Assembly: GCA_024679065.1 (NCBI GenBank)
Contig: JAGIQG010000014.1
Span: 8,742,001 to 8,806,000 of the forward strand
Length of the DNA stretch: 64,000 nucleotides
DNA from: Sphyrna mokarran
Lineage: Eukaryota
Reading direction: 5' to 3'
A program made the position numbers and the translations under genes. This document shows, piece by piece, positions 2,069 to 57,901 of this stretch. Numbering within the stretch: position 1 is the first letter of the stretch; every line of letters starts with the position of its first letter. The notes beneath the pieces are model-generated. The model saw nothing but the letters and a program-made list of their open reading frames with translations. It did not search any database and was not told the DNA's origin.

Positions 2069-2997
2069 CTAGGGACAGAAAGTTTGTTTTAGTTTCGCAT
2101 ATTTCTCCAAAATGAAAAATATATTCCACCAAGGGAATTTTGAGGAATTAAATAATTCTTTATGCAGGCAGATGTGTGTCGCTACATAAATACATTTTTT
2201 GGCACACGACTTCAACTGTGTGAGCATGTCTCCGGTTTCAGTGGCAATATATGCAGGAGATGTATAACCAGGTCTGAGATGAACAACCAGGCTGTTAATC
2301 CAATGAGTCACCATCGATGTCAGACTCAACAGTATAAAATTGGCCGACACAGCAAACAACAAAACAATTGATTTCCTTCGGCTCTCCATTTCTGGATCAT
2401 GCTGATTCTCAGTGATGGGAGTCCGGAGTCTCCTGCGAGCAATATTCGTCAGTACAATTCGCCTCACTGTTATGCAATTGAACAGCAATATAAAACCAAA
2501 TGGCATCAATGAGAATAAAACAATTTGCAATTTGAAGTACGTTCTCCCTGCAAGTGATGTGAAAAAGGCCACACTTGGGCGGAAACCCCATTGCACACCG
2601 TTCAAGATTTGTGTATGCTCATTTGAAAACCAAAACGGGATGTTCTCTAAACACATTAACACAGAAACAATGATTATGACATTGGATGCGGTTCTCACGG
2701 TGCAATATCTGGTTTTCAGTTTCTGAGAACATATGCCTACACACCGGTCAAATGTGAAGCCAACTGTAAACCACACCGACAAACCCACACTGGTGCAAGT
2801 CAGGTATGTCATTAGCTTGCAAACCACAGTGTAAGAGAGAAATGAAAATGGAAAGCGTTTTCTTAGAATTTGAAATGCGATTCTTTGGACGAGTGTGACC
2901 AGTAGATCTGCGGCTCCCATAGCAACCATATAAATGGACATACATTTGGAAATGCCACAGTTTCCTCGGCAGAGTGTCACTATTATCAATAGGTTCA
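2069..2997 (-). CDS. GPR139/GPR142-like GPCR gene A, coding exon 2 (spliced product about 332 aa)
   Basis: Acceptor cttttctgcctctttCAG ends at 2998. Phase-1 join G+TG gives V-N-L-L-I-I-V. Hydrophobic 7TM pattern with LCRGNCGIS, YMVAMGAADLLV, SVWFTVGFTFDRC, ILLFNCITV, DPEMESRRKSIVLLF and CIYVAT. Confidence 0.85.
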
Positions 2998-3699
2998 CTG
3001 AAAGAGGCAGAAAAGATCATTAAGAGTAAACGCTCAGCAACATCTCCACATCTGTTGCGGCACAGCGTAAAAATGTGTTTTTACGAAAAATTGGGATCAT
3101 GATTTCCTTTTACAATAATAGAAAAGCATTGGTGACATTGTTTCCCAATTAATCAATCTGAACACTGCACATCCTTTATGCATATTTCTTTCGAAAGCAA
3201 CAAATGCGGTTCTAATTCAGGATGATGATGAATCGGAAAGAAACAGGGGCATACCAACACATGGAAACACATACGCTCAACTCCCAAAGAATGGCGGGAG
3301 GATAGGGCAATGACGTGGGTGATCACATGGTGTCACTCGTCAGTATTTAGTCATTTTCTCTCCCAATTTGATTCCCAAAAGCAAACCCCGTTAAATTGAC
3401 CGCTAGGTGTCAAAGGGACATTAATGGTCCTAAAAATTCGGTCCTCCCCACGATGGTACACAGAGGGTCTCGAACACAAAATTTAGTTTCTTTGCAACTG
3501 AGGAAATTGGAGCTTAGGAAACTGTAGCTGGTATTTATCTCTTGTTTCTAATGGAATATATCATACTAAGGTTCTTCGCGGAAGTGTTATTTTTCAAAAT
3601 TAGACACCACATCATCTAAGGAGATTTTAGAAAGGTAGTTCAAGTTTCGGGACGGGAAGTCCTCAGGTTTGAAGGAGTTTCTCTGAAGAGAAAAGATGA

Positions 3700-4350
3700 A
3701 GAAGCAGTGCAGTTTGCAAAGAACGATGACAATTTTGTAATGGAGGCACTATTTTGGCGGAAGATAGCGGAGGACAGCGGGTAGTAACGTACAAGGTGAA
3801 CAGAATTTGTGTTGAAAAATGTCATAGATTATAGAGATTTGGATATCTTCAAGTGTACACAAGTCAAGGCGTGAGTGGCCGGACAGGGTTGAATTAGCAT
3901 GGTCAAGAGATAGCAAGTATTTGAGTGCACGTTTCAGCAGCCAGAACTGGACAATGTTTGAGATAATTGCGGAGGTGATAATGGCGGACTCTGTGCAGGT
4001 GCAAGTATATTGTTAGAATCGCATCTCGTAGTCAAACATTAGGCCGTATTTCAATACACTTCGGCTTCATTTCTTAACATTACTTGGCAGAGTTAAAAGG
4101 CAATATTTCGGTAACTAAGTTTGAAGCAGGAGCCAGATCGAATGGCTTCCTCCTTCCTGATATTTTAAGGTATTAAATATCATATTATCCAAGAAAACAT
4201 ATCAAATAAACGCACTGATGATTTATTAACAGTGGGGGAATCGAGTGAGGGGACTGTGTGGCAGAGCTCGCTGTCATCGGTGTACAGGTGAAATCATTTA
4301 TGATTTTGTTTGATGTTATGTGACTATAAATAGGATAGAGTTAATGAAAA
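3700..4350 (-). mobile_element. Old LINE reverse transcriptase fragment (L2/CR1 group) in the gene A intron
   Basis: The reverse complement of ctgtcatcggtgtacaggtgaaa (~4271-4293) reads F-H-L-Y-T-D-D-S, a decayed YADD motif. The surrounding sequence is heavily decayed. Confidence 0.45.
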
Positions 4351-4358
4351 AATGTTGA

Positions 4359-4925
4359 ACATAAGAACATAAGAAATAGGAGCAGGAGTAGGCCATCTAA
4401 CCCTCGAGCCAGCCCTGCCATTCAATAAGATCATGGCTCATCTGTAGTGGATCAGTTCCACTTTCCCGCTTTCTCCCCATAACCCTTAATTCCCTCGTCT
4501 ATTGGAAATGTACCTACCCGAGGCTTAAATATATTTAACGAGGTAGCCTCCACCACTTCAATGGGCGGAAAATTCCAGAGATTGTGTGAAGAAGTCCTTT
4601 TTCAACTCTGTTCTAAACTGACCCCTCCCCCCCCCACTTATTTTGAGGCTGTGCCCTCTAGTTCTGTTTTCCTTTCTAAGCGAAAATAATCTCTCTGCCT
4701 CTACCCTATTACTGTTCATTATCTTGCAAGTCTCTATAAGATTCCCCCCTCAGCCTTCTAAACTCTAACGAGTACAGGCCCAATCTATTTAATCTTTCCT
4801 CATAAACTAACCTTCTCATCTCCGGTATCAGCCTGGTGAACCTTCTCTGTACTCCCTCCAAGGCCAATATATCCTTAAGGAAACAAGGGGACCAAAACTG
4901 CACACAGTATTCCAGTATTGATTTG
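4359..4925 (-). mobile_element. CR1 LINE 3' end
   Basis: Tail aacataagaacataagaaataggagcaggagtaggcc. ORF 4709-4942 encodes [10 protein letters not shown]...LEGVQRRFTRLIP...YEERLNRLGLYSLEFRRLRG, the CR1 ORF2 C-terminus. Confidence 0.9.
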
Positions 4926-5169
4926 ATATTTATCACTGGCATAGAAATGGGACGATAAGCGATTGCAATTTGATCTTGTGATGTGATTAACTAAAAAGCA
5001 ATCACAGACAATCATATAATTGATCTGGCGCATACAGAAGCCATTTTTTACTTCCGTGTTTGTACAGTTCTCCCAATCCATAACTCTCATGGTCCGACTC
5101 CGGATTGTTTTAACTGAAAGCCTGTCGAATCTTTCTGATCAGATACTTGTGTGAAGCCAATATAAATTA

Positions 5170-7530: not shown

Positions 7531-7600
7531 CGGGTGTACCAATGGCCACCAGCACGGGATAATAAATGTCGATTATCTGTCGGATCACTGGCCTTTCCAT
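7531..7600 (-). CDS. GPCR gene A, coding exon 1 (MERPVIRQIIDIYYPVLVAIGTP-G)
   Basis: ATG at 7600, 23 codons plus 1 nt, then donor G^GTAATC at 7530. It has the same YYPxLxxxGxP^G layout as gene C exon 1. The intron spans 2998-7530. Confidence 0.85.
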
Positions 7601-8819
7601 TCTTTGGAAGGATGCTTGTTCAATATTGCGTTTTCCAACTCCTACCAAAATGTAAGCGTTTTTAAGCGTTCGCCTTTACAGAGAGAGAGAAAAAAAAAAT
7701 CCACGCCCAGCTGGGTAAATCAGCTTACGCAGCAGCTGACTTTAGTTATCGTCACCGAACAAGCAAACAATCCATTCCACTTCCGTGAATTCGAAGCGAC
7801 GATGGATAAACTGCAGCCATCAATCCACACAATGCTGCCAATGAAATGCATCACCAGGAAGAAATCTGAAAGAAAATACAGCTCATGGAATGTACACAAG
7901 CGTGTTTTGTAAATTCGTATTTCCACAGGCACAAAAGGGAACAATCGATATCAGATCGAGTAGTCCTTACAGAGAACATTTTAAGTAAGAACATTACGCT
8001 TTATAATTCAAATTTAGACTTGGTGACTAATTCATGATGTCTATAGACAAACAAATTTTGCGAATAAAATAAACATAATATTAAAATCATTAAATTAATT
8101 CTAGAGACAAACAAATCACAGAAGATAATGGTTCAAGTATGAATAGAAAGAGCTCTGACAGTTACGAAATTAATGCCTGACTAGATAGTAACCATCAAAT
8201 ATTCTTAAAGTTTCAGAAAAGAGAGCCTTTTTTTATGGGTAGAACAAAAGGGAATTAATTACGACGCACGTTTGTGGCATAAACCAGTCTAAGAAGTTTG
8301 TGTGCAGTCTGTAACCAGAAGAAAAAGAAACACATGTAAATCGATGTTGACAGGTTAGTCAAAGAGAAAGGTGAAATTATAATTGACAATAAGAAAACAA
8401 TCCAGAAGTAACATGAAATGGAATGTCTGACGAAAATAGGGAGCGTGTATGTATCAGTATCAGGATTTCAAAACAAATATAATATTGGTAAGAGTCAAGG
8501 AACTACGTGGGAAAAAAATCCTCTGGACTTGTCTTCGAAGGGTTTTTAAAAAAGAGTTGAATATCAAGTTGGCAGATGTGATAGACTTGGTACTTCAGAA
8601 ACAATTAGCGTATTGAGTGGTTGGGAGGTGGGGAAGTAGGGAAGCGGGGAAATAAATAACGTAAAGATGAGGCAAATATTCGTGCCAGGCAAAATGATCG
8701 CAACTACCGTTAAGTGCCTGATAATAATAAAATTGTATGTCATAAATTCATTCAATGGAATCAATAAAGAAGGGGAATTGATCTGAAAAATAAAGTGTTA
8801 AAGCCCAGAGGGACACTCA

Positions 8820-10110: not shown

Positions 10111-10119
10111 TTAATCATG

Positions 10120-12270: not shown

Positions 12271-15200
12271 ATTTTGGAAAAGTACAAGTACTCCCTTTTT
12301 GAACTCAAAACTATTATGTTAATTTTATTCATGACCTTTAGGTATACGTCGAAGGTCACCATTGTTCATTTTTCAACTACTGATCTCTGCCAATTCTAAC
12401 ATTTCTTATATTATATTATGTTTGGCCTGTCAGGCAATTTAGCGTTCAGATGACAGGCAACGATCCAGGTATGATCTTGTATAACCAATAGACCAGCGCG
12501 TGTACTGCTGACTGATTCCATTCACAAACGGCATACACGAAAGATTTATGAGAGAAGCGTTTCGCATTGGTACGAATGCTACAAATAACCGAGAATACCT
12601 GTATCGAATTATTGACTGAAACTAAATTTCCAATTTGCCTGCTAGATCACATTGCAGTTTAAAATTAGGGGGAATCGTGTAATTCCTTCCCCTGCGTTAG
12701 GTGGACACGTGACAATCTATCTTACCTTCTGGGTAGACACCCACACTACATCACAAGAGCAGTTGCGGTTCAAGGAAATGACTCATCAGCAACTTAACTG
12801 GCAAGTGAAGTAGGATAATAATCGACGGATTCAGAGTGATTTTGTCCATTTCTCTATTGGCAACAGAAACCGTTGAATAACGCAACTCACCACAACCACC
12901 TAAAGGACAGTTAGGGAGTGGAAACTAAAGGTAGCGTAGAAATTAATCCCTATGTCAAATAAAGTAATGAAAATGGACTTTGGAACCAAGAATACTGAAA
13001 GCACACTGCGCAACAACTCTCCCCACGTGTCTTGTCTAAGTCATGGTAGAAAGTATCCGGCAGCTTGTTCACGGATCGGTCCAGTGAGATTAACGTCCAG
13101 ATCAGTTTTCTAATGGAGTTCAAGCGGAGACAAAATTCATAAACGTCTATGTGGTTGATGGAAGTGCCTTTAAGCTCTTTATTATTTGTAACCGATATTA
13201 CCTCTATCACAAAGTCCTAAATTTGGTGGAGCGATCTTTTATCTCCCTCTTCGTGTAAAAGGTATCGTTCATCGAGGTAACAATGGAGATACAATAGAAT
13301 TCCACACGAAAGCTTTCGAAACCGTTATCTATCTGGTTACCTGCTAAACCGTCCTGTTTCCTGGAATAGATTCAAGAGCTCGTGAGACTGAAACATGAAT
13401 GGATAAGAGGAGGTTCCGATTTTTTTTTAAGAGGATGCTTATTGGAATGGAAAAAATTGTAATAAGATATTCTCCTCGATAACCAGTGTGCAGAGAGTTC
13501 GGGTAACTTGTAGGGTATTTAACATGAATTCGGGAGTGTTTTCACGGAGCGGTATTCAGAATTTGGAACACATTGCCTCAGAGGTTGAGAGAGGCAGGCA
13601 CTTCAATAAAATTTATCAAACGGCTATAGTATGCCTTTTAATTTGCCGAAGGTACAGGCGACAGACAGGAGCTGGATAGTGCATAAATATGTCCGCCGTC
13701 AAAATGGACCGAATGACCTGTCCACATGTTTTGCACTATTTAGTCTTTATATTTATCCTGTTTTATATTGTTCCATGGATTCCAACTGTATGCTCGAACA
13801 TATGAAATAGACAAAATAAACGGAGATATTAAAAATGTTTGCTGAGTGCAGAAAGGAAATTGTGACGATCAAAATACGAAAACAGACTTGGACGATTTTA
13901 CATCGTTGTTGGAATGTCGATTTTTCCTGTGTTAACGTTTTACAATTAGAATCTTCTGCCTGGTCAACAATTTAAGATAATAGTTTGTCGTAACTTCCTT
14001 TCTAAAGATTTGCGATTGGTTGTGGTTGATTGGATGTTCAAGTAAGGGAACATTGATATGTGTGTCCACTTAATGCGTTTGATAAATATAAAATGACCAG
14101 CAAAAATTCCAAACGGAAATTTTAAATTGGACTATCACAGAGATCTTGTATGATTGGACAAAAGGACCAGTTGAAAACGACTGGGAATGTGGTACTGCCT
14201 GGAAGAGGTTTTAGAGATAGCGTCAGTCGCAAAGGCTGGATGAATATACAGAAGTAAGAAGGCCAGTAGGCGTTCCAGGGTTTTATACAAATGTGTTGTG
14301 GTGATGGATAAGTTCTCTTCGAAGGGCATAGTATACGTTCAGTTGGAAAGTCCTGTAATGGAGGAAATTTAGGATTTGAAAGATTTTAGTGTTTGATGCG
14401 TCGCTTTCGGGGATTGGACGAGAATTTAGAAATAAAGATCACTGGTGGGGCTGGACGAGTTTTCAGGAATGGGGAGTTTAAAGATGGAGTTTTTTTTTTA
14501 ATACGGAGGATTAAAGGAACAGGAGGATGATGAGTACATAAGGAGCGTCGATCTGGAGAGAGTTTGGAAATATTGAAATTCAAATACACGAACAGTGATT
14601 GCAGCACTTTTGCTGATTTGGAAGGGAAGCATTGCTATAAAGGCTGGTGGGTATTACAGAGATCGAATCTGATCTCTGCTTTGCTATACAAACCGGTGAC
14701 GTACAGTCTATTTCTGTATGTTCCTCCACTATTACACGTCTCCATATCTTCCCAAGTTCCCTAAACACTATAACACTCCCTGATCGATGACATCATCGAT
14801 GACATGGTAATCATATGATTGTTCTGGCAAAAGATTCCTCGGCACCAATTGGCTGTCCTGTTTTCTTGAATTTAAGAGCGATAACACTTTAAACAACAGA
14901 TCGCTTGTGGTAAAGGACGTTGGGACATTTTGTTTGTATTGCAAGAGAACGTGTAGAACATCTAAATAATGTTTCTTCTCAATTCCCGTCACCAAGGGAA
15001 TCACAGAAAGTCAGCAAATCACAAAAAATGATATTTCTAGCTAATTATTTGTTTAAAATTAAAGCCATTATTATCTGTAGCATTAACCATTAAAACATCA
15101 AAACGAAAAAAAGTTTATGCCTTGAATTTGAATGAACTAATTTCGCAAAAGTGCACTCTTTGCAATAGGTAAATACATCCAAGATGGGAGCAGCAGTAGG

Positions 15201-15686
15201 AAATGTGCGCCCAGTCAGAATAATCGGCACAGAATCTCAACACAAGTTTGTGCGTTGTTTCTTCATATCCCTTAACAATGCATTTTTTTAATGATCACTC
15301 TGCAACGTACAATGTGGACATTGTATATATTGTTCTTGTCACAACATAGGGAAAAATAAAACACTTGAAAGAACCACACATTATATAGAAACGTGAAGGC
15401 ATTTTTTTCGGAAACTAATACATTCTAACTAAAATGAAACGTGCGATAGAATTGTACTTTGTTGAAAGCTGAAGAGACTAAACGGAAGGTAAGGGAGGTG
15501 AGACAAATTGTTGGATTGTTGGATTCTAGTAAAGGATCAATTGTTTAGCAGGTTGGGGATAAAACGTATTGCGGATTTGAATTTTAATTCGTTGGTACAT
15601 TGATTAGAGGTGAGATGAGCAACAATATGTACTTCAGCGATGAAGGAAAAGGTACTGAAGGTATGCTACCTTATTATCATAAGCCT

Positions 15687-15988
15687 AATCCATAAAATCC
15701 ATAGCTTTTCTACAATGCAGAAAACGGTCATTCGATCCATGGGCCTTCACTAAACCTCCCAACGTGCAGTCTACATCGGGGCACTCTCCGCCTGATTCCC
15801 GTAATCTCTTATCATTGATCATGGGCAATCCACTTAAATGACGTCTGTGGGTAGAAACTGAAACACACGAAAGAAATCCACGCAGACGCAGGCAATTTGT
15901 ACAAATTCCACAAAATAGTAAAACCGAGGCTGCAATCAATCCAGGTCCCTGGCGGTGAGAGACAACATTACGAATCAATGCGCAGCCT
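15687..15988 (-). mobile_element. tRNA-derived SINE (V-SINE/HE1-like), old copy
   Basis: CR1-like tail aatccataaaatccatag, a decayed V-core (gaaactgaaacacacgaaagaaatccacgcagacgcagg) and a tRNA-like head at the right end. The paralogous copy lies at 53465-53770. Confidence 0.65.
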
Positions 15989-16269
15989 GCAAAGAGAACA
16001 AAATTGATATGATGATTTACCTTCGTTTAAAGTTGAGCAACTAAACCGTTAATACACCTATTGACAACTCATTTTCCAGCCCGATGGACTGAACTCACTT
16101 GGCTGAGGCTAGATCCAGGAATGCAGGATAAATATTTTCATGATCTCTTGAAAAATCCCTGCACCAGAGTTTTTCGAACGGAAGAAATGGGCGAGTGGTA
16201 TTAGGACTGGACTTTTAATTCTGGAAGCCAGCTGTTGTGCAGGGGATCCGGGTTCGAACCCTGTCACGG

Positions 16270-16490
16270 ATATTGAAATACATAAAAAAAGGAATCTGGA
16301 ATTTAGAATCTACTGATCAAGGTGAAACCATTGTCGAAAGTCTGAGATCTCAGTTCTTATTTGCCTGGTCTAAGTATGAATCCAGAGCTACAGCAATGTG
16401 GTTGACTGGCCTCTGCCCTTGGGCAATCAGGGATAGGAAACAAATGCGGGTCATCCAGCGACGCCCATGCCCCACGAATAAACAAATTTT
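16270..16490 (+). mobile_element. Old SINE-like repeat
   Basis: gcctggtctaagtatgaatccagagctacagcaatgtggttgact...cagcgacgcccatgcccacgaataaa. The paralog is at ~54020-54255. Confidence 0.55.
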
Positions 16491-19400
16491 GCACAGTATC
16501 AGCGGTGTGAGCCATCTAAAAGACACACTGCAAGGCTCCTTTGAAAGCACCTTCCAAGCCCTAAAATCTATCACCTAGAAAGAAAAGGGTGGGTAATGCA
16601 TTGTGTGCAAACTAGCGCTGCCCAGATCCCAGGATGGAATGCAACAAAAACATCTTATTTGTTTGTCGTGAGGTTGTTTCACTCTCTATAACATCCGATC
16701 AATCCATTTTTATCATGCAAGTGGCCTTGTGTTGTCGTTTCACCTCATTTTTAGCTGTGCCATATCCTTAATCTGGCATGCCATTTTCCCATATTCATTG
16801 AATCAAAATTGACTATCAATTTGATAGTAATGATAGTTTGGGTGACATGACTTGCGTCGAATTCGCAGCTTATGCTTGAATGGTGACCTGCTACCGCTGA
16901 TAGCGCACAAGGCCATTAGGATATCATGTTTTCAGTTAAAAATGTTTGGAACTTATCCCATCTACCGTAGCGGCAGTGCACACAATATAACGAAAATTAT
17001 CCAAAATTTGCAACTGAACTGTACCCTATTTAGGACATTGCGGTCGTCATCCTACCAAATCTATTGGAAGAAGTAACCGCTACATGCACAGAGTACATGG
17101 ATAAGTGCATCCGGGACTGAGATTGGTGAGGATGAATTGATTTTATTCACATTTCTTTAGTAAACATTTGGTGTTTTTTTTTTACCCTCAGCTTACCCAT
17201 ATGAACAGACCTATAAATATATTAATTTGGAGCAGAAATAGATGACATTTTCCGTGGAATTTCTTCAAGTTATTTCTTATTCTTTCAATTTTTTCTGAAT
17301 ATAAGTGCAACCTCAGCACGCCTTCAACCTGACACAGAATCGTGTTATTAATTTCGTAAAGCTCCGCTGAAATGTGTCAAATAGATTCTTTTTTTTCTTT
17401 AATAACAAGGACGCCAGGCAAGTCTCAGCCTTTCTTCTATTAGTTTTATCAGGTCAGGTTAGGCCAGCTGCTGGCGAAGCAAGATCAGTAATAACCAGCA
17501 TGACGTTTCACTGCCCATGCCTAACCTGGTGCTATGTTATTTCATTGGATTCTGTTCAAGGTTGAGGACCCCAACTCGCCCCAGGCAAACCTTTGTTGGA
17601 TGCATGACAACATGCCCTTGCCTCTGTCCATACGTAGGAATTGTTATCATGCATCACAATATCATAAGGTAAGATACAGTCACTATAACTGCATCAGTCC
17701 TTTGTTTTACTGATGACCAGCCCCCAAATGTTCAGATATTAGACTTTGACAGAATGAATGTCCCGTGCATACTGCTGTATTCTTTGGCAATGGCGATGTT
17801 CGGTGATCCATATGGCTTTGATCCACTTAGAATTCGAGTGGCTAAGTGGGCCATTTCAGAGTCAGCGACTCAGAGTCAGGGCCTGGAATCACATATAGGT
17901 CAGGCCAGGTAAAGATTACAGATTTCTTAAACAGATGGATGCTAACTTTAATCGGCCATGCTTTCATTGTCATTATTAGGGGAGTCTTTTCGTTGGTTTT
18001 CAAGTTGTACGATTGCAACAGCAATGGTAAGCTTTTAAAACGGCCGTCAGAGCAATAGCCTCTATATCTTGATTTCTCACCAAGTGTATTTTCACTACAA
18101 CATTATCTATCCAAGTGATTGTCTCCCTGATAATTGCAAAATAAAAACAAAGCCTTTGCTAAGGAAACGCGGATTATGCTTGTCACTGATAAAATTATAT
18201 GACGAAAATAGCACTGAATATATAATTCTCTGTGTTATCATTAGAATTGAATTGGGTCTATAGCTACACGGTCATAACTTGATGTTGAAATCTATTTGCG
18301 CAAAGCAAACTAAATACAATGTTATCAACGTTGCAATCTAGCATATCCCCAAGGACGCCGAATACAATAGAAAATAGTAGGCACGCACTGATTCACATTT
18401 CATAGAGAAACTTGCCCGACCACAAAGGAGCATATCACATTGTACAGAAAATATATTATCTGATAGATAGTATCCTAGGAATATATTGCAACATCCTTAC
18501 TTTTACTGGGCTTCCTGCGAAGTCACTATAGATAATAATCTTGTGCAAAGATGTGTCTCAATTGTTCTATTATTTTATTTTGCAATTGATAATGTTACAT
18601 GCTGCTTTTGAAAACACAATTTTCCAGGCAATGAAAGAATTATGTTATTTTGTTGAATCAAATTCTTGAATTACCTGAGCTGTGTTAATCAAATGTTTTA
18701 GCTGGTAATATATCTTACTATCTGACTAAGGGGCTTCTGAATGATGATGCTCATCGTGCCTTTAAAGCAACATTGTGTAGATATGAATCTGACCTCAATG
18801 CATGCAACATCTTTGAGTAAAGTTAGTAATTTCGAGTTTTTTGGGATTGCCTACTGTTGTAGAATTATATTGAGTCTTGTTCAGGAATTGAACTTGGCAC
18901 CACTGACTCTGCATGTGTTTCTGTCAGTGTAGACCTGTTCAAAGAGATGTGCACCAACTGAACTAAAATAAAATATCTGACTGCACTAATTATGTGTTAC
19001 TGTAGCTGTAATATTATACTACATGAGGCTCACCAACTCAGCACCAGAAAAAGTTTGCCCATTCCCTTTCCAGACTCTACCAAATGGACAAATGATCGAT
19101 TCGAAGTTGCATTTGCTTATTATCAATTACTCTCTGCCCATACTTACTTCAACATGTTGCACTTAATCGCTGAGTTAGACATTGAAAATATCTGATTACT
19201 AAATCGCAGTATTGTTTGCTGGCTCCCTTATAGTTAATTTTGTGGCAATTTGTGGTCTTATGCGGGGAAAATGCAGCCTCTCCACGTGCACTACTCATTA
19301 CCTGGTGACACGATATGGCAGCAGTGGATCTATTGGTTATCATCACCGAGGTAATACTGCAAAGAAATGTGTACTACTATTATTCCCGGGGTAATTTTGC

Positions 19401-19887
19401 TGTACATCGTCCCTGTATGTAGTATTATCAACATCAGACGACACTGTGTAGCCGTATAATGTTCTGTCTTGTTTAATGTCATTTTCTCCTTTGATCGATC
19501 ATTAGAAACTTGTTATCAGAAACTGAGAACTAAATATTGAAACAAGAAAACAGCAGCTGCTTTCTAATAACAATCTATTTTTTCACTCTATCAAGAATCA
19601 TAGCATTCTACTTTACATTTGAACTGTGGAGAAGTAATCAACGAAGTGACACCATTCTATTATATAAAACAACTATTTCGCTGAGCTAACATTTGACCAG
19701 TTTAATTAGGTTTTAACTTCAAATCTTTTATTTGCTTCAATTCTGCTGTTCAACGCTCTGACAATCAAACATATTTTATTGGCCAATCGAGTCAGTGAGG
19801 CACTGAAGGGTCAGAAAAAAAAGAAAGAGTCGTAGTGACCAGACACTGAGAGCAGAAGGAAGCCTTGGTATTTACTGTTCTTCATAT

Positions 19888-20648
19888 AGAACAAAGAACA
19901 TAGAACACTACAGCACAAACAGGCCCTTCGGCCCACAAGTTGCGCCGAACACATCAAAACCTACCCAGCCATAGACCTATCTATAACCCCCAATCCCATT
20001 GGATCCCATATACTCATCCAGGAGTCTTTTAAAAGACCCCAGCGAGTTCGCCTTGACCACCACCGACGGCAGCCGATTCCATTCACTCACCACCCTCTGA
20101 GTGAAAAACTTTTCCCTAGCATCCCCTCTGTACTTGCTTCCCTGCACCTTAAATCTGTGCCCTCTCGTCGCGACCATTTCAGCCCTGGGAAATAGTCCCT
20201 GAGAGTCCACCCTATCTAATCCTCTCAACATCTTGTAAACCTCTATCAGGTCGCCTCTCAATCTTCGTCTCTCCAGGGAGAACAGTCCCAGCACCCTCAA
20301 CCTGTCTTCATAAGGCATGCCTCCCAATCCAGGCAACATCCTTGTAAATCTCCTCTGCACCCTTTCAATAGCTTCCATGTTTTTCCTACAGTGAGGCGAC
20401 CAGAACTGCGCACAGTACTCCAAGTGTGGTCTGACAAGGATCCTCTAAAACTGCAGCATTACCTCCTGACTCCTGAACTCAATCCCTCGATGAATGAAGG
20501 CCAGTACACCGTAAGCTTTCTTAACCACATCCTCCACCTGGGAGGCCGATTTGAGAGTCTTATGGACCCGGACCCCAAGATCCCTCTGCTCTTCCACACA
20601 GCTAAGATTCCTACCTTTGATAGTGTACTCATTCATCCCGTTGGATGA
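19888..20648 (-). mobile_element. Young 5'-truncated CR1 inserted into pseudogene B exon 2
   Basis: Tail agaacaaagaacatagaacac. ORFs 19977-20423 and 20445-20636 are a clean CR1 ORF2 C-terminus (EYCAQFWSPH...RRRLRGDLIEVYK...FFTQRVV.WNRLP). ATAT is present at both junctions. Confidence 0.93.
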
Positions 20649-20723
20649 ATATCTGGTAGCTTCATCCTTTTGTTATCGGTGGGTGTTTTGCATGTTTCAT
20701 AATATAACATTAATGAAGCAACG

Positions 20724-20749
20724 TATATATATACACACACACATATGTG

Positions 20750-20788
<39 letters not shown>
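20724..20788. repeat. (TA)n/(CA)n microsatellite
   Basis: The dinucleotide run is directly visible. Confidence 0.95.
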
Positions 20789-20792
<4 letters not shown>

Positions 20793-23700
20793 CGAGTACA
20801 ACTTGTTAATGTTTTTCTCCCGCTTCTCCAGGAAGCAAGTCCGACTGGTTAATATTTTTCCTGGGGAGGGTGAGAGAATAGGGATGAATCGTTTGGTGAA
20901 TTGAATGGATCGATATGCTTGTTTGATGGGAGCAGCTAACATATTTAGAACAATTTGCTATTTTTTTTTTCACAGAAGAGACATATCCAGGAGTTAAGGG
21001 ACACGAGATCACATTCAGAGGACTCAAGGTAAGGATGTTGGAGGAGTAAAGCACTGACGGGCTGTGAACTGTGGGAATGTATTTTGGCTTCTTTTCAGAA
21101 CAGGTATCGCCAAAAAGCTCAGTTCATGCAGGAACTCACGAGACCAGAGTCCCAATGAAAGACACATCTTTATCGATCAACGATCAAGGTTAGCCTTGAG
21201 CAGTCAATACCTTACTAGAATAGAAAGACTTTAGAATTCTCGTTCCACTCTAAAATTGCAGTATATCAATCAGAACAATTAGACATTGCCCAAGTTTGCA
21301 TCTTTCACTTTTTTTCCAGTGAATATTATGAAATATTCATCATTTGTACAAATCAATCACTGTTAACAATTGTCTTATGCGTTAGCCAGTTGAATTATAC
21401 TCTCTGGCATCATGGAATTTCAATGGCTTGAACATCTGGATTCTTCTCCCCTCTGTCAGTTATAAATTAACAAAAAATCGGATTTTACATTTCAACTAAT
21501 TGGGAATATGCCGAGGTTTGAAGCTGTTGCAGTAACAAATTTCTTTATGCAGCGACTCAGTCTAAATTCAGAGAACAGTTTAAAAGTGCAACGAAGCACC
21601 AATTTACTGTATTTAATCCCAGATACTTAGCTACAAATGTCAAAGTTGCTGCTCCCACCAATTCTCATTCACGTCAATGGCCGAAGAAGATAGCTGCCAT
21701 TCTCATACATGAGAAGGGATGCCTTATCAGGGCAACTTGAATTGTCCTATTCATAAAGTGGCTTTAGAAGCCATAGCTTTCGTAAGGTTTTCTGAGAAAA
21801 CCATACACATTCTGTGTTTTCATTCTTCCAAGGAATGTGTTTCGTCTGCCAAAGCACCTTCCTTCACAGCCTTTGGATAAAGTGTACAATTGCCTTTAAA
21901 ATATAGCTAATAATTTCAGATATCAAAACAAATATTTAAATCGTAAATACTTGATCAAATTGCACACATAATTTAAGTCAATAAAGCGTTTATGCCACTT
22001 TCCTGATACAGTTTCCCCTGTAACACTGAGACTCTGATCTGGGGTCATTATAATTATTGCTAGCAGTTTATTTTGTCTTAAATTCCTGATAATTGGAAAT
22101 TATCAAGTATGATCTACTATGAATTTCTCCAACAGCAGAATATTTATAATGATACTATAATATGTGAAACGCTACGTGACAATGAAGGTACAATGAGCCA
22201 AATAAAAATGGGAACCTTTAGGACACCGTGGTAGATACAGAGGAGTAGGCAGACGGGCCAAAGAGCCGTGATCAGGGACAATTTTTGTGCTATCAAATAT
22301 AGGAAGGGAACTGTGTGGTGGCAGCGCATTAACAAAATCAGAGCGTCGCCAGATGGTGTGCAAGCTACAGCTGCTGAGACCGCCAACTTAGCTGGCTCGA
22401 TTCTCAGATTCTAAAGTATTGAAAGAAAGAAACGTAACTCTACTTACGAAACGAAAATTATTCAAATGTTGTAAAGCTACTTGTGAGAGCTGGTTACATT
22501 TTAAATATTACAACAGACAATTTATTGTGTCCCGGTCCCTAAGTTTCAAGCTGTAGAGCTCACAAGAATGAAACTCGAATGGGAGGTTGAGGGGAGGGCG
22601 AGTGGCGCTGTTCACGTGTTCACCTGTTCACCTGTTTACGTCCAGTCCATGTCTGGACAGAGCGACAGAGCCCGGATAAGTGATTAGAGATGACTTCGGT
22701 TAATGATACCGAGTCTCCAATGCCTCAAGCCTTTGGATGCTGGCCAACTCAATTTGTCACTGTGATAACTCTTTCAAGCTGAAAAAAGGATGTGATCGCT
22801 CAATCTGAGCTCAACTTCTGATTACTGATTCTGCTTAGCATCACTAAGGCCGCCTCTTTCACCTCTGCGACATCATCTGACTCGCTTCCTGCCTAATCAT
22901 TTCTGTGACTGGAAATCTATAGCAATCCGTCTTACCTCTGGACTTAACTATTGCAGCCTGCTGCTTTCTGACCTCAAACAATGTAACCTCCAGTGAGTAA
23001 AGGTTGTCCAAAACTTTTGTGCCTATGCCCTTATCACACAGAGCCCCATTCATCAGTTCTGATCACTGACTCATACTGTCTCGTTATATATGATTTAAAT
23101 TATTGCCACGCTTTTTAGGCCCCTTATGGTTTTCTATACCCCAGTTAATGTTCATCAATCTCCTCTTAAAGAAATTATATCCAAATCGGCCATTTTTTTT
23201 TTCCATGGCTAAAATTGTGCAGCCCTGCCAATATCTCCTGCAGGATTAATAACATTATCCAAAACTTAGTGAGAATGTTTTAATCGCAGTCTCAGGGATC
23301 ACTTTGAAGTTATGGTTAGAGAAATAATTAATGCTATAGAGATTAGCAATATATTTTGATCGCGTCAGATGGAGAGAGACCCGTCTGGAACATCAGCACC
23401 ATCTGCAATAGATGTTCTGAATCGTCTATTCCTTTCTCTGCTTCGTCCGTCTGTCAAAACTGTTTGCATTGTCTTCAGGTAGTTCATTCAAGATTAGAAT
23501 AGCTCGACTTGTGAACATCAAGCCCCTTCATCTCTTCTCTCGTTGTCACATTTGTCAATTACTACCAAGCGCCTGAAGTTGATGTTGCGATGGACAGATT
23601 GTTTTATCAATCTTACATCTTCCCATAATGCTGCATTCATTCTGTACTTTGAAGATCGGTGACAGAACGAAGTGACGAGATGATGAGGGAGAAGATTCAA

Positions 23701-43755: not shown

Positions 43756-44630
43756 TTAATTTAACAATCGATGTAACGGATATTTCACCATACTCTTCAA
43801 TTGCTCTCTGAACTTGGACTGAGTCGCCACGTAAATAAATGTATTTGTGCAACAGTTTAAATCCCGTAGCATATACGCAATTTTTTCAAAGTTATAAAAA
43901 GATTCAGCATCGAATCCATCACCGACGTCAAAAAAGTATAAAAGATACACCAACCACAGAAGAAGGAAGCTGCCAGGAATGGTGAACAGCAAAATGATTG
44001 ATTTCATTCTGTTCTCTATCTCTGGATCACTGTGATTCTCCCCCTTGTTCTGACCTTTCAGCTCTTTACGTTTTCGACTGCTCAGTAAAATATGTTTGAC
44101 GGTTAGGGCGTTGAGCAACAGAATTAAACCAAATGGTATCAATGGGGTTAAAATCTTTTCAAATTTTCTAAATCCAATCCATCTTGGATCAGTGAAGTAG
44201 CTTCGCTTATTATAACAGTACCATGGTACATTCTCAATGATCTTTTTCGGTTCAAATCTGAAGTAGATGGGAATGTTTTTTAAACAGAGCAAAATGCCAA
44301 TTGTAGATAGTATCAACACCGCAGTTTTCTTGGTGCAATATTTAGTTTTCAGAGAATGACAACAAATGGCGACATATCTATCAAAACTGAAAGCGACAGT
44401 AAACCAAACAGAGCAGTCCAGGGCCGCACGCAAAAGTGCATAGCGAACACTGCACACAGGGGTAATCCATAGGAAATTAATTCTGAAATAATATTCATTG
44501 ACGCGCCTGAGAATGACCTCAGTAATAATGACCACTAGATCCGCAGTTGCCATTGCCACCAGGTATTGAGTGGTGCAGTTGGAGAGGCCACAATTGCCAC
44601 ACGACAGAATGACGATTGCAAGTCCGTTAA
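43756..44630 (-). CDS. GPR139/GPR142-like GPCR gene D, coding exon 2 (spliced product 313 aa, intact)
   Basis: Acceptor tatttctcttacAG ends at 44631, and G+TT gives V-N-G-L-A-I-V. Motifs: CGNCGLS, YLVAMATADL, TPVC, SVWFTVAFSFDRYVAIC, NVPWYCY, LLLNALTV and NCCTNTFIYVATQSKFREQL. Confidence 0.92.
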
Positions 44631-45510: not shown

Positions 45511-45577
45511 CAGGCACACCAACTATACCAAGAACCATGTAGAATATTTTTCTGACCCATTGAACTGGTCGATGCAT
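45511..45577 (-). CDS. GPCR gene D, coding exon 1 (MHRPVQWVRKIFYMVLGIVGVP-G)
   Basis: ATG at 45577, 22 codons plus 1 nt, consensus donor G^GTAAGT at 45510. Confidence 0.9.
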
Positions 45578-46199: not shown

Positions 46200-46390
46200 G
46201 GCACCACCACACTAGCAGGCTTCTGATTTCAGATCCTGACAATTTATTCTGTAACATTCTGATTATTTCATTCTGTTTTTGATTCTCCTGCAAAATAACT
46301 GAAAAAAAAAAATATCCTTTCTTGTGTCAAACCTGCCTTCGTGAACATCTCTCTGCACTGTGATAGACCGTCATTATTTTAAAGAATCTG
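46200..46390 (+). repeat. Direct repeat copy 2
   Basis: See 41450-41632. Confidence 0.8.
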
Positions 46391-49070: not shown

Positions 49071-49102
<32 letters not shown>

Positions 49103-50964: not shown

Positions 50965-52193
50965 TAGAACATAGAACATAGAACATAGAACATTACAGCA
51001 CAGAACAGGCCCTTCGGCCTTCGATGTTGTTCCGACCAAAATAAAAAGCAATGCCCCTTCAAACTAAACCATTCCCTTCTCTTCCATATACTTATCAATT
51101 AACCTCTTAAACGCCACCAAACTTGGCGGATCTACGACAGCTGAGGCAGGGCATTCCATTCCCTAATCACTCTTTGAGTAAAGAACCTACCTCTGATATC
51201 CGTCCTATAACTCATACCCCTTAATTTAAAGCTGTGTCCCCTCGTGCTAGCTTTCTCCATCCTAGGAAAAAGGCTATCACTGTCCACCCTATCTAAACCT
51301 CTAATCATCTTATATGCTTCAATAAGATCCCTCTTAGCCGCCTCCTTTCTAACGAAAACAACCTCAAATCCTTCAACCTCTCTTCATAGGACCTGCCCTC
51401 CATACCAGGCAACATCCTGGTAAACCTCCTCTGTACCCTCTCCAATGCCTCCACATCTTTCTTATAATGTGGACCAGAACTGCACACAATACTCCAAGTG
51501 CGGCCGCACTAGAGTTTTGTACAGTTGCAACATGATGCTGCGGCTCCTAAATTCAATCCCCCTGCCAATAAAGCTAAGACTCCATATGCCTTCTTAACAA
51601 CTTTATCCACTTGACTGCCTACTTTCAGGGATCTATTGACACATACACCAAGATCCTTCTGTTCCTCAACACTATTAAGAGCCCTACCATTAGCCCTATA
51701 CTCTACACATTTATTGTTCCTGCCAAAGTGCATTACCTCACACTTTTCCACATTAAACTCCATTTGCCACCTCTCGGCCCAGCTCTGCAACTTGTCCAAG
51801 TCACTCTGTAAACTAAAACACCCCTCTTCACTATCTACCACACCACCAACTTTAGTATCATCTGCAAATTTACTGATCCATCCCTCAATACCCTCATCCA
51901 GATCATTTATAAAAATTACAAACAGCAGGGGCCCCAAAACAGACCCCTGAGGCACACCACTTGTCACCGAACTCCACGATGAATATCTCCCATCAACCAC
52001 CACCCTCTGTCTTCTATCTGCCAGCCAATTCCTCATCCAATTAGCTAAATCACCCTCTATTCCATACATCTGCATTTTCTGCAGAAGTCTTCCATGGGCC
52101 ACCTTATCAAACGCCTTACTAAAGTCCATATTAAATCCTATCCCTAATTATACTCTCCAATACTTTGCCCATAACAGAAGTAAGACTCACTGG
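50965..52193 (-). mobile_element. Young CR1 LINE, 5'-truncated, with an internal deletion near 52130
   Basis: Tail (tagaaca)x3 and ORFs 51509-52129 (DFSKAFD...[13 protein letters not shown]...FADD) and 51305-51487. It is almost identical to 30128-30790 over the shared part. Confidence 0.95.
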
Positions 52194-53464
52194 CATGACT
52201 GGACGAATTTTCAAGGATGGAGAGCTTAAAGACGGATTTTTTCTTATGGATAGGGAGAATTATAGGGACGGAAGGCTGATGTATAGAAAGGAATTGTCGG
52301 TCTGGATAAGGTTACAAAGAATGCGGGAATTGCATATCCAAGCACATGAATAATGCTTACAGCCAGACTGTTGGTTAGGAAGTTAGGCATTACTATATAG
52401 ATGGTTGCATATTACAGTGATAGATTCTGAATGTGCATGCGAACTGGCGGCGTACTCAATATCTCTGTTCCTGCGCCATGGCATTTTTTCTCATTACTGA
52501 AGTCCTAAGCACCACGTCCCTCTCTTACCTAGAACATCATGCGCAGTATATAATGATTATTATCAGATTCTTCCGGCAAGAGATTTCTAGCCCTCGTTTG
52601 GCAGTTGTGCTCTTCTGAATTGAAGATTGCTAATATTTTAAACAGTAGACCATTTGTGGCAAAAGGCTTTACGACTTTTTTTTATGTTGTAAGAAGCATG
52701 ATACGAATTCTAACAGATTATTTTTCTATTTCGATTGCAGTAACTGAAAGATCACAGGACACAAAGAAGAACACAAAACGACAGAGAAAGAGGCGTTACT
52801 AGCTAATTATTTGCTTTAATTCAAATCATAGTTGCCTATAACGCGAACCACTAAAATTTTGAAATGAAAAAAAATGCTCATGCCCTGGATTTCAATGACC
52901 TAATTTCACTAATGTGCACTTTTTGCAGTGCTTCAAGATATCGAACATAGAATTAGGACTCAAACATTTGCCCCTACGAATCTGTGAAGCCAGTCAGGAT
53001 GATTATGGCAGATCCAAACAACATACTCCCGGCACTTTCCTCGTATTCTTGACAATGTGTTTCCTTCATGACTTCCTTGCACTGATCACTGTGGAAAACA
53101 ATTAGAATAGCATATATTGTTCTTGTAGTCAGAACACAAGAAAGTATGAAACCACCAGACATTATACAGAAATGAAAAGGCATTTATCTGAAATTGGAGA
53201 ATTTTAGCTAAAGGGAGGGTTCAACAGAATGTTTGTACTTTGTTTAAAGCAGAGCTGAGCGGAAGTTTAAGGGAGGTGAGTCAAATTCTGAAAATGTTAG
53301 ATTGTTATTAGAAATGATTTATTTAGCACATAACGTTGATAGCAAAGCAGCAAGCATTTTAATTTTAATTCATTGGTCTCTTCATTAGAGGAGAGTTGAG
53401 TATGTTTTAATCAGTGATGATAGGAAATTACTCCAAGTATGTTAAACTATTATCACCAGTACAA

Positions 53465-53770
53465 TCCATAAAATCCATAGAGATTCTACACTATAGTAAG
53501 ATGCCATTCGGCCCGTGGGCCCTGAACTGACTCTGCAAAAGTGCACTCCACTTCGGCCCAGTCTCTGCCCTATTCCATGAACTCGGATCATTGACCATGG
53601 CGAATCCACTTAAACCACAACTTAAACGATGCGATGGAATTAAGGGAATTCGGAGGAAACCTACGTAGACACAAGGAAATCGTAGAACCTCCATACAGAC
53701 AGTCACTCTCGGATGGAATCAATCTGCATCTTTGGCGCTGGGAGATTGCAGTACGAAGCATTGTGCCACT
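53465..53770 (-). mobile_element. tRNA-derived SINE, paralog of 15687-15988
   Basis: It has the same aatccataaaatccatag tail and the same position within the duplicated block. Confidence 0.65.
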
Positions 53771-56128
53771 TGTCCGGAGAGATGTGCTTCGTCTTCGATT
53801 AAAATTGAGCAACCAGACCATTAACACAACTGTTCAGTTCCCAGCCTCATGGGCCGAACACGCTTGGCCTAAGAGACATTCAGGAGTACAGGGCAAATGT
53901 CTACATGACATCTTGGAAAATACCTGCACCAAATTTGCTGGAAGGAGGAGATCGATTAGTGACATTTTCAATAGACTTTTAATTGAGAATATTCAGCTGA
54001 TTAATCCATCACGTCAGCTGGTGGAATTTGAATTCAATGAAAAAAGAACTGCAATTAATAATTTACTGAACGTGGGAAACCATTGCCGATTGTTGGAAAA
54101 GCCCATCTCACCTCCCAAGTTGGCAAGTTGGCACTTGCCTGGCCAACGTGTGACTCCAGAACCGCAGCAAAACAGTTAAGTCGCTACCAGGGGCTACAAG
54201 AGATGGAGATTACATCCTGGCGAGCTAGCGATGCCCATGTCCTACGAATGAATAAAAATTGAATAGTGTCAGTGGTGTGCCAACTACGAGACACTGTAAC
54301 GTTACCATTCCAGCACCTTCCGAGTTCACTAGCTCTACTACCGAGAAGGAAAATAATACATAAATAATAATAAATAAGTTATTAATAAATAATAATAAGC
54401 TGGGACTGCCCACATTCCAGGAAAAAATAAGCAAATAAAAAGTCTTTTCTTATTGCAAGGATGCTTCTACCTGGATATCACACGCTGCGTCCACTGCTTA
54501 TCATAGCTCTGTTGTCGCTTCAAACGACAGACATGCTATTTTTACTTCTGTCAAATTTCTAACCCGGCACGCCATTTTATTCCTTGAATAAAATTTGACT
54601 ATCAAACCCGATGGCAATGGTAGTATGAGTGGTGTGAATTGCTTTAAAGTAACAGGTAATGATTAAAAAGTGTCCTGCTGGCTCTGATGGGCCTCAACGA
54701 CACATGAATGTCATGTTTCCAGTTCAAAATATTTGGAACTTTTCCCTACTAACGTGGTAGCAGTGCCAAACAGCACTAGATTGATTATCAAAAGTTTGCA
54801 GAACTTCATCTTCACATGACTGTGCTTTCGTTACCCATCAATAATATTCATCGGAGTAACGTCACATACACAAACAAAAGCACGTGGAAAGGTGCATCTG
54901 TGACAGAGTGATTGGTGAGGGTTAATATTCTTTCTTCCAGAGAATGTTTGATGCCTTTATCGCCCTCAGAACATGCCTATGAACATATCTGTGCATATAG
55001 CAATATGGATAGCGTAGACGACATAGTCTGAGAAACCTCCTTTAACACATTTATTGATATTCCAATTGTACTGAAAGTGAGCCTAAACTCGAAACACCTT
55101 CACCATCAGACTCGATCTTGCTATTAATCTCGTAAGCCTCACCTGAAATGCATCAGGCAGATTTTTTTTTTCCTTTAATTACAAGGTCACTGCAATATAA
55201 AGCACCCCAGGCGCGTGATCATCCGTTTCCTGTATTAGTTTTATCAGCTGAGGCTAGGGAGTAGATGGTGAAGCGCATGGACGAAATGGTGATGTCCAAT
55301 GGACATTTCTTTGCTCATGCCTGATCTGATGCCATGATATTTCATTACGTTCCGGTGGAGGTTGTGGACCCCACATCCGTCTCTAGAGAATCATTGCCCA
55401 ACACTTGGCTACTTGCCACCACCCGTAGCCACATGCGAGAATGGTGATAATGGTGTTTGGGTTGTTGACTGAGGAAAGTATATCTATATCAATCATTTGC
55501 TTCACTTGTGACCAGTCCTCAAAATTTCGAATGTGAGACTTTTCCCGAATTAATGTCCTGGGTATGCTGCTGTTTTTTTTTTCTCTCTCTCTGGCACCAA
55601 TGGTAATGCTTGATGATCCATATTTTTTTTTTCCACTTATAATTCAAGTGGCTAGCTCTAGTTTCAGAGCCAGCCACTTAACGAGGGTATGGACTCTTAC
55701 ATATAGGTCAAATTAGGTAAAGATTACAGATTGCCGAAACAAGTGTTTTTTTTTACTGGAATTAGCCATCTTTCATCGTCATCAGTAGAGGGGAGTTTTG
55801 TTCGTTTTCAAGTTGCAAGATTCCATTTCTGTTCAAGCAATTGCAATGTCAGGACATTAACGGCTGCCAATAGAACATTAAACTCGGTTTCTTGATTTCT
55901 CACCAACTGACCTTTTCACTAAACCAGCATCTATCCAAATGATTGGCTTCCTGGTACTTGCCAGAACAATGGACTCTCTAGCAAAACGTGACTTATACCT
56001 ATCATTGGTAAAATTATATGAATAGCACTGAAAATAGAATTCTCTGTGATATGCTCATAAATCGATGCTGAAGTATGTTTTCTCAAATCAAGCTAAATAC
56101 AATGTGATCAGAGCTGCAATCGAGCATA

Positions 56129-56156
56129 TCCCCAAGGAAGTCGAACACTGTATAAA
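56129..56156 (+). promoter_or_regulatory. Putative gene E promoter: O/E-like site plus TATA
   Basis: TCCCCAAGGA 56129-56138 and TATAAA 56151-56156; ATG at 56242. The first motif is identical in pseudogene B (18346-18355). Confidence 0.5.
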
Positions 56157-56241
56157 TTAAACACTCGAGGCACGTACTGATTCAAGTTTCATTCAGAGAG
56201 GCTTGCCCGACCACAAAGGACCAAATTAGAACACACAGAAC

Positions 56242-56308
56242 ATGCATTACCCTATCGATAACATCCTGAAAATGTATTACATTATTCTTGTTGTTATTGG
56301 TCTTCCTG
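56242..56308 (+). CDS. GPCR gene E, coding exon 1 (MHYPIDNILKMYYIILVVIGLP-G)
   Basis: ATG at 56242, 22 codons plus 1 nt, donor G^GTAAGT. It is absent from the ORF track because it is short. Confidence 0.9.
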
Positions 56309-56999
56309 GTAAGTAACTACAATTATTAAAGTTGTACAAAGATGTGTCTCATCTATTCTATTGATTTGTTGTGCGATTGATGACGCCGCATACTGGCCTC
56401 GAGGACACAATTTCAGAGGCAATAAAAAAGTAATGTTATTTTATTGAACCAAAACGTCTTGAATTGCCAGAGGTGTTTTAATCAATTGTTTTATCCGGTA
56501 AAGTATCTCAGTATCAAACTAACGAGTTTCTGAGTTACCGTGCTCCGGGGTTTAAACGACATTGTGTAGATATGAATCAGACCTCAGTGCATGTAGCATC
56601 GTTGAGTAAAGTTAATAATCTCCTCTTCTTGCGATTTTCTACTATAGTAGAATTGTACTGAGTTTCCATCAGGAATTGAATTTGGAGCACTGACTACGCA
56701 TGGTTTTATGTCAATATAGAACTGTACAATGAGTTGTGCACTATCTGAACTAAAAATAAATTTGTGACTCCACCGAATATACATTACTTTATCTATGAAA
56801 CTCTGTTATACGCTGATCACCTGAAAAAAGTTTGTCAAACCATTATCTTCCAAGACTCTATTAAACGGGCAAGTTTGAGGGTGCACAGGCTTCTGAAAAA
56901 ATATATACATTCTGTCCCTTCCCTTCTCAGCATGCAGTCCTTACTTTCTCGGTTAGTCACCAAGTGAATCTCACTATATTTTTATCACCTCTCTTACAG

Positions 57000-57901
57000 C
57001 TAATTTTGTGGCAATTCTGATTCTATCACGGGGAAAATGCAACCTCTCTCCCTCTACTATTCGTTACCTGGTGACGATGGCAGCAGCAGATCTACTTGTC
57101 ATCATCTCAGAGGTTATACTGTGGCGAATTGTTTATTACTATTCCCCGGGAATTTTTCTGTACATCACCCCTGTGTGTAGTGTCATCAATGTCATACGCC
57201 GTGCAGCCATAGATTGTTCTGTCTGGTTTACTGTCACTTTTTCCTTTGATCGATTCTTGGCCATTTGTTCTCCAAAGCTGAGAACAAAATATTGCAACAA
57301 GAAAACGGCAGCTGTGGTTCTATTAACAACCTGCATATTTTTCTCTATCAAAAATGTACCCTTCTACTTTACACTTGAACCCGGAGCGATAATCAACAAT
57401 GTGCCATGGTACTGTTATGTAAATTCAATTTACTTCACTGAACCAGGATGGATGGCATTTGACTTGTTTAATTGGGTTTTAACTCCAATTCTCCCATTTA
57501 TTTTAATTCTGCTGTTCAATGTGTTGACAGTCAGATACATTTTGGTTGCTAGTCGAGTCCGTAAGACACTGAAGGGTCAAAGAAAAGGAGAAAATCACAG
57601 TGACCCAGAGATTGAGGGCAGAAAGAAGTCTCGGATTTTATTGTTCAGCATATCTGGCAGCTTCATTCTTCTGTGGTTATTATTTGTTTTGTATGTCTCA
57701 TATTATAACATTACTGGAGCGAATGCCAGGAATTATAACGTTTCTGAATTTATCTTTCAACGAGTTGGGTTTATGCTGCGGAATTTAAGTTGTTGCACAA
57801 ACACATTTATTTATGTGGCGACTCAGTCTAAATTCAGGGAGCAGATCAAAAGTGCAATGAAATATCCATTTACTCTAATTAAACAAATATTTAATGAATG
57901 A
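57000..57901 (+). CDS. GPR139/GPR142-like GPCR gene E, coding exon 2 (spliced product 322 aa, intact)
   Basis: Acceptor cctctcttacAG ends at 56999, and G+CT gives A-N-F-V-A-I-L, i.e. GLPAN as in GPR139 TM1. Motifs: SRGKCNLS, YLVTMAAADLL, TPVC, DRFLAIC, NVPWYCY and SCCTNTFIYVATQSKFREQI. Confidence 0.93.

Follow-up and report, generated by a model that had tools for sequence, protein, structure and literature searches.

A very large, clustered family of GPR139-related receptors in sharks and rays, with five members in one Sphyrna mokarran locus and a candidate chemosensory role

Five related loci for G-protein-coupled receptors (GPCRs) of class A, named A to E, lie in a 64,000-nucleotide window of Sphyrna mokarran DNA (contig JAGIQG010000014.1, positions 8,742,001 to 8,806,000; coordinates below count from the first letter of the window). 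They belong to a very large, clustered birth-and-death GPCR family of sharks and rays, which evolves under purifying selection overall and has diversified in its ligand pocket. An earlier note, made from the letters of the window alone, had proposed a cluster of GPR139/142-like receptors forming a chemosensory family. Based on the present analysis, a chemosensory repertoire for external cues is the leading, though evenly balanced, proposal.

A search with exon 2 of gene E matched 1,284 of 2,416 candidate protein clusters (90% identity clusters), in agreement with the expectation of a clustered, many-copy family with frequent pseudogenes. Species, names and contigs were taken from the best 120 of these 1,284 matches (hereafter the best 120). 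All of them carry shark names, with 79 proteins from Heterodontus, 19 from Pristiophorus and 22 from seven other species. As the earlier note had also foreseen, automated annotation calls nearly all of them probable or putative GPR139 (118 proteins), the other two being labelled capa receptor-like. The 79 Heterodontus proteins are distributed over 23 contigs, 16 of which are at least 10 Mb long, with 28 proteins on a single contig, and no pair of them is more than 95% identical. The nearest neighbour is conspecific for 79/79 Heterodontus and 18/19 Pristiophorus proteins, and species labels group together on the tree, indicating lineage-specific growth. At 50% clustering, 108 representatives were matched at an E-value of 1e-30 or better. 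This search provided 149 new proteins, of which 79 fragments (fewer than 240 profile positions) were dropped; the rest are 58 family members, 3 orphans of vertebrates and 9 presumably invertebrate proteins, the outgroup. In the whale-shark supplements, two large 7tm_1 orthogroups that lack human names, OG0000365 (157 proteins/12 taxa) and OG0000181 (199 proteins/17 taxa), may correspond to the same family.

Within the window, tblastn of the long frames gives the orientations -,+,+,-,+ for A to E and no further GPCR locus. A, C, D and E share one plan: a first coding exon of 67-70 nt, a GT-AG phase-1 intron in transmembrane helix 1 (TM1) after G-x-P and before x-N(1.50), and a single large second exon; in B this plan is decayed but recognisable. 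The mixed orientation of five paralogs and their two-exon plan with a phase-1 intron at G-x-P were thus read correctly from the letters. Protein identity between the copies is 36-58%, and their best database identity is 70%. All four translatable copies (A, C, D and E) match 7tm_1 above the curated cut-off. This domain is present in 66/66 members checked, and a D/E-R-Y-type motif and seven helices are found as well, which places the family in class A. Acceptor-like pyrimidine tracts directly 5' of the ATG in A (7675-7700) and C (33620-33640) hint at an additional first exon, non-coding, in the A/C subfamily. A 192-N assembly gap between B and C (28106-28297) could hide further copies.

Decay was scored at 52 sites that are near-invariant across the 58 family representatives. 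The intact copies D (313 aa) and E (322 aa) break two and one of these sites, respectively, and 104 of the best 120 break at most one. Gene A has an open frame of 332 aa with 9/52 sites broken, including the cysteine of extracellular loop 2 (ECL2), W6.48 and N7.49; only 2/58 representatives have as many or more broken sites, and A is probably non-functional despite its open frame. C carries a single in-frame stop at position 7.36 and a small in-frame deletion in intracellular loop 3 (ICL3). B has lost its start codon and donor and has many stops, frameshifts and an insertion of a long interspersed nuclear element (LINE). The earlier count of two intact copies, one open but degenerate copy and two pseudogenes (D/E, A and B/C) is reproduced. 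In B, a piece resembling the E 3' flank (57986-58519) precedes one resembling the end of E exon 2 (57743-57882), both within 20891-21616, so that the segment order is swapped relative to E, beside a (TA)n run.

The array itself is old. No young duplicates are present in the window: identity between B and E, the two most similar copies, is 73% for the intron, 78% for exon 2 and 71% across 4 kb upstream. D/E has a dS of about 1.07 and a dN/dS of 0.29, with dN/dS values of 0.31 for A/C and 0.25 for C/E; dS is saturated in 3/6 window pairs, and the range of 0.25-0.31 comes from the other three. The window copies are thus under purifying selection overall. On the tree, A and C fall in a different deep subfamily from D and E, and every copy is closer to database proteins than to its window neighbours. 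Because of this deep split, these database affinities and the high divergence, the duplications in the window are old, and the rapid turnover that had been suggested for it is unsupported.

Among PDB entries, GPR139 scores highest against the family profile with 83 bits (E 1.6e-22), the next match reaching 61 bits, and gene E alone matches human GPR139 with an E-value of 1e-9. On these scores, GPR139 is the closest characterised receptor and the family falls within the wider GPR139/142 clade. In the Foldseek search, GPR139 (7vui, 21% identity) ties with the receptors for neurotensin and opioids; because of this tie, the fold search is no evidence of kinship.

Two orphan GPCRs, G2 and G3, are far closer to the family than GPR139 is. 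Both are conserved orphans of non-mammalian vertebrates that are automatically named probable GPR139. G2 occurs about once per species in sharks, bony fishes, amphibians and reptiles, with no bird- or mammal-named protein among the best 120 of its 145 matches. It matches the family profile with an E-value of 2.8e-52, has an invariant R6.51, and its unspliced entries change to intron-like sequence immediately ahead of N1.50, as would fit an identical intron. Having its own shark orthologs, G2 is a paralog of the A-E family. Some G2 models are labelled TMEM183A isoforms, which hints at a neighbouring gene. Rinne et al. (2019) described GPR139/142-related subtypes GPR210A/B in coelacanth and fishes, sharks being unmentioned in the available part of that article (PMC6504862). 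G2 is possibly identical to these subtypes.

G3 comprises 20 amphibian proteins and one sturgeon protein, the other 4/25 matches being family members, with a skate member found among the matches of this query. It has about one copy per species, is 66-74% identical among amphibians, carries N at 2.50 and matches the family profile with an E-value of 1.7e-56. The D-P-E motif in ICL3 is present in 18/21 G3 proteins and in 49/58 and 114/120 family proteins (representatives and best 120, respectively), compared to 0/94 for G2, and a cysteine pair after TM3 is common to G3 and the family. Because these features are shared and G2 has shark orthologs of its own, G3 is probably the ortholog of the shark family. 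An IQ-TREE run of 52 rows, in which true GPR139 and GPR142 were absent, recovers the family (SH-aLRT 89), G2 (100) and G3 (100) as separate clades with an unresolved fork between them. From these comparisons, the family appears as its own clade beside G2 and G3 and not as GPR139 or GPR142 proper. The description as GPR139/142-like stands insofar as GPR139 is the closest solved relative; it is unsupported as a claim of identity, the family being multi-copy and lacking most of the Trp/Phe site of GPR139.

This site consists of F3.33, H5.42, W6.48, R6.51 and N7.39 (PMC5430874). The window copies hold 0-2 of these five residues, and more than three are found in 0/58 representatives and 0/120 of the best matches. 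R or K at 6.51 is likewise rare (6/58, 1/120 and 0/4 window copies). G3 keeps F3.33, W6.48 and N7.39 together with a basic K6.51, while the shark family keeps only W6.48. Because the residues other than W6.48 are mostly absent, the aromatic amino-acid sensing suggested by the earlier note is unsupported.

Diversification of the pocket was measured at the 19 positions listed for GPR139 in PMC5430874, mapped by alignment anchors. In the 58 representatives, entropy is 2.66 bits at the pocket versus 1.61 bits at 169 other helix sites (p 2e-5), in line with the earlier view that the extracellular face varies among paralogs. The values are 0.17 versus 0.52 bits in the 21 G3 orthologs (p 0.002) and 0.71 versus 1.02 bits in 94 G2 orthologs (p 0.12), the latter being those of 120 proteins kept by length. 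With 73 other sites of the extracellular half as a control, the contrast remains in the representatives (2.66 versus 2.15 bits, p 0.012) and is reversed in G2 (p 0.035) and G3 (p 0.010). A rank-shift test gives p 0.001, the most shifted sites being 6.51, 2.61, 3.29, 5.42, 3.33, 7.35, 5.43, 6.55, 7.39 and 5.39. Pocket strings of 16 residues are all distinct in the family (58/58 representatives and 120/120 of the best matches), compared to 4 types in 21 G3 and 48 in 94 G2 proteins. For D/E, pN is 0.42 and pS 0.44 on 18 pocket codons versus 0.25 and 0.57 for the whole gene, in a set of only four coding sequences. A pocket that is variable among paralogs and conserved among single-copy orthologs is, at the level of the alignments, a signature of diversified ligand specificity.

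The intracellular half of the helices is conserved (1.21 versus 2.25 bits), and motifs such as D2.50, S-V-W-F-T-V in TM3, DRF, D-P-E-x-x-x-R-R-K-S in ICL3 and the 3.25-ECL2 cysteine pair are maintained. Regional identity among A, C, D and E decreases from ICL1 (0.63), TM3 (0.53), TM2 (0.46) and ECL2 (0.42) to ICL3 (0.41), TM5 (0.37), TM4 (0.30) and ECL3 (0.08). The contrast drawn earlier between conserved TM2, TM3 and intracellular motifs and divergent extracellular parts is thus partly right: TM3 and ICL1 are kept and ECL3 has diverged, but TM2 and ICL3 are hardly better conserved than ECL2. An AlphaFold model of E exon 2 (pLDDT 87.0, pTM 0.84) shows seven helices and an ECL2 hairpin.

In the favoured explanation, an elasmobranch-expanded repertoire, with A-E as one tandem array, would have descended from one orphan receptor within the wider GPR139/142 clade. 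The ancestor might have been a G3-like receptor for aromatic amino acids or peptides that multiplied into a many-ligand repertoire, copies being born by tandem or segmental duplication and lost by stops, frameshifts and LINE insertion. Since the signalling half is the same and the pocket is each copy's own, many ligands might feed one G-protein output. The ligands would be external cues carried by water or present in a lumen. The charged pocket residues and the ECL2 hairpin make peptides or different polar molecules the likeliest candidates, and scattered chemosensory cells of nose, mouth, gill or skin may read them. As described in PMC2700072, chemoreceptors were identified by the same criteria in Aplysia. 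A bolder form, possible but doubtful, is a fifth vertebrate olfactory/chemosensory family to which a GPR139-related orphan gave rise; it would outnumber the V2Rs in some sharks, with one receptor expressed per neuron in the elasmobranch nose.

Several observations weigh against a chemosensory role. The excess of pocket over extracellular-half entropy is not significant in the best 120 (p 0.062), in Heterodontus (0.053) or in Pristiophorus (0.27). Even in the single-copy G2, ECL2 and ECL3 belong to the most variable regions, and variable loops are for this reason not diagnostic. The MRGPR and FPR families have the same genomic signature and are not known to be olfactory. O/E-like sites with one mismatch to the motif occur upstream of B, D and E, at a distance of 88-113 nt, and none within 1 kb of A and C. 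Their number is within chance, and those of B and E are not independent because the two genes stem from one duplication event. The top-50 list of a catshark olfactory library contains no GPCR in the available part of PMC11979771; because V2Rs are absent from it too, this list is uninformative for sparsely expressed genes. V2Rs are reported to be expanded and expressed in shark olfactory neurons. The gap to which the earlier note points is for this reason smaller than was implied.

The main rival, somewhat unlikely in our view, is a surveillance role as in MRGPRs and FPRs, with leukocytes, mast-like cells or somatosensory neurons sensing microbial, venom or damage peptides. It would produce the same clusters, pseudogenes and variable pocket, and the modelled ECL2 hairpin of E is of a kind usual in peptide receptors. 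EBF, moreover, is also a B-cell factor. Peptides with aromatic C-termini are described as activating the wider clade (PMC8557429), and cartilaginous fishes lack MAS1 and related receptors according to the available part of PMC8455134 (orthogroup OG0000260), leaving an MRGPR-type role open. However, GPR139 (83 bits) scores clearly above chemokine receptors (at most 61 bits), and the window contains no immune genes. Rather improbable is internal nutrient or hormone sensing in gut, pancreas, rectal gland or gonad, a GPR142-type role widened to many metabolites or peptides. GPR142 acts in pancreas and gut and GPR139 in brain (PMC7318219), shark V2Rs and ORs are reported also from testis, rectal gland, spleen and stomach, and the probable ortholog G3 keeps F3.33, W6.48, K6.51 and N7.39. 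Pockets of receptors for endogenous ligands stay conserved, as in G2 and G3, and scores of distinct pockets with species-specific expansions are hard to fit to such a role.

Copy-number drift, whereby a unit prone to duplication becomes more numerous in LINE-rich regions and can do without most of its copies, is largely refuted and very improbable. Three of the five window copies are dead or decaying and LINE fragments are frequent, but the dN/dS range, the scarcity of broken near-invariant sites in 104 of the best 120 and the concentration of variation on the pocket all contradict it. There is equally little chance that the genes are co-orthologs of GPR139/142 sensing L-Trp, L-Phe and similar amino acids. 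GPR139 is their best solved relative by sequence and tied first by fold, and the related G2 gene has an intron near the same place; yet no protein in either family set keeps more than three of the five Trp/Phe-site residues and a basic 6.51 is rare. In addition, the GPR142 orthogroup in the available part of PMC8455134 has 70 proteins/35 taxa, without expansion.

The coordinates of the receptor genes and associated features are given in Table 1.

Table 1. Receptor genes, pseudogenes and associated features in the 64,000-nucleotide window
Feature	Coordinates	Strand	Evidence
Gene A coding exon 2 (from the end of TM1 to the stop)	2069..2997	-	tblastn, exon alignment; open frame
Gene A coding exon 1, 70 nt, then 4533-nt phase-1 intron	7531..7600	-	
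B unit, old segmental duplicate of the E unit (52176-59122), with upstream region and intron	14428..22190	+	66% over 5719 columns, plus 67-78% pieces
Pseudogene B exon 1 remnant, no start codon or donor	18451..18517	+	68% identity to E exon 1
Pseudogene B exon 2, stops and frameshifts; pieces 19234-19887, 20649-20719, 21478-21616	19234..21616	+	
LINE 3' fragment inside B exon 2	19888..20648	-	Open reading frame 19980-20444; blastn to LINE copies 50971-51691 and 24855-25219
Gene C coding exon 1, 70 nt, then 408-nt phase-1 intron	33648..33717	+	
Gene C coding exon 2, stop at 34875	34126..35018	+	
Gene D coding exon 2, intact	43756..44630	-	
Gene D coding exon 1, 67 nt, then 880-nt phase-1 intron	45511..45577	-	
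Candidate proximal promoter for gene E, with an O/E (EBF)-like site plus TATAAA; a weak lead	56123..56156	+	13% of 300-bp windows here have such sites
Gene E coding exon 1, 67 nt, then 691-nt phase-1 intron	56242..56308	+	
Gene E coding exon 2, intact	57000..57901	+	Predicted model: seven helices, ECL2 beta-hairpin

Besides the receptors, 11 other long frames are present, of which two encode LINE reverse transcriptase and nine have no Pfam match. The LINE frames near the B insertion match RVT_1. Two reverse transcriptase fragments (30132-30564 and 51699-52131) are 97.5% identical, indicating that LINEs were recently active, and further LINE pieces are located near 4357-4833, 10366-10844, 24788-26080, 38726-39002 and 63226-63354. 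An inverted repeat (29067-29300 / 29339-29572) with 234-nt arms, 88% complementary, and a 38-nt spacer lies beside an (AT)n run and resembles a miniature inverted-repeat transposable element. Gene D is flanked by a 188-nt repeat, 80% identical between its copies (41455-41635 and 46206-46392). A 100-aa frame on the reverse strand (40264-40563) has no Pfam match and resembles a decayed hAT-type transposase. No Rfam match or tRNA was found in the window.

Full-text searches, whose coverage omits most subscription papers, retrieved no literature on this expansion, and no paper joining gpr139 and shark deals with genes of sharks, judging from titles and abstracts. Within the reach of these searches, the genes are known as annotated sequences under a borrowed name and not as a family. 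Cartilaginous fishes have been described as poor in GPCRs (PMC8455134), and shark smell as relying on about 32 canonical V2Rs and a handful of OR, TAAR and V1R genes. One subclade alone already amounts to 79 distinct proteins in horn shark among the best 120. The repertoire hidden under the probable GPR139 label is a missing part of shark biology, whatever the tissue. If olfactory, it would be another independent origin of vertebrate chemoreceptors, and as a one-per-neuron family it would overturn the view that a few dozen receptors serve shark smell; if its role is immune or somatosensory, it would be the shark counterpart of MRGPRs. The conserved amphibian ortholog G3, with its GPR139-like pocket, might provide a handle on the ancestral ligand.

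Compared to known receptor systems, the family resembles GPR139 and GPR142 in its profile match and in having no proline at 7.50, and its two coding exons recall the two exons of GPR139 (PMC7318219). It differs from them in keeping the 3.25 cysteine, which GPR139 lacks, in its copy number (tens to hundreds versus one), and in its low identity to 7vui and altered Trp/Phe site. With G3 it has the ICL3 motif and the cysteine pair after TM3 in common, whereas G3 is nearly single-copy with an invariant pocket. G2 is similar in profile match and intron place but has its own shark orthologs and a fixed R6.51. Like the OR, TAAR, V1R and V2R repertoires, the family forms clusters on many chromosomes, undergoes birth and death and has a pocket that varies among paralogs and is conserved among orthologs. 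Unlike these, it has a coding intron; OR or TAAR motifs occur in 0/4 window proteins, and olfactory, V1R or taste Pfam matches in 0/66 members. The MRGPR/FPR, Aplysia and lophotrochozoan expansions are parallels in kind: in each of them a class A receptor of the peptide type has expanded independently and has a variable pocket. Atlas look-alikes of the family include FMRFamide-receptor-like clusters, and the MRGPRs and FPRs arose from a different ancestor than the shark receptors.

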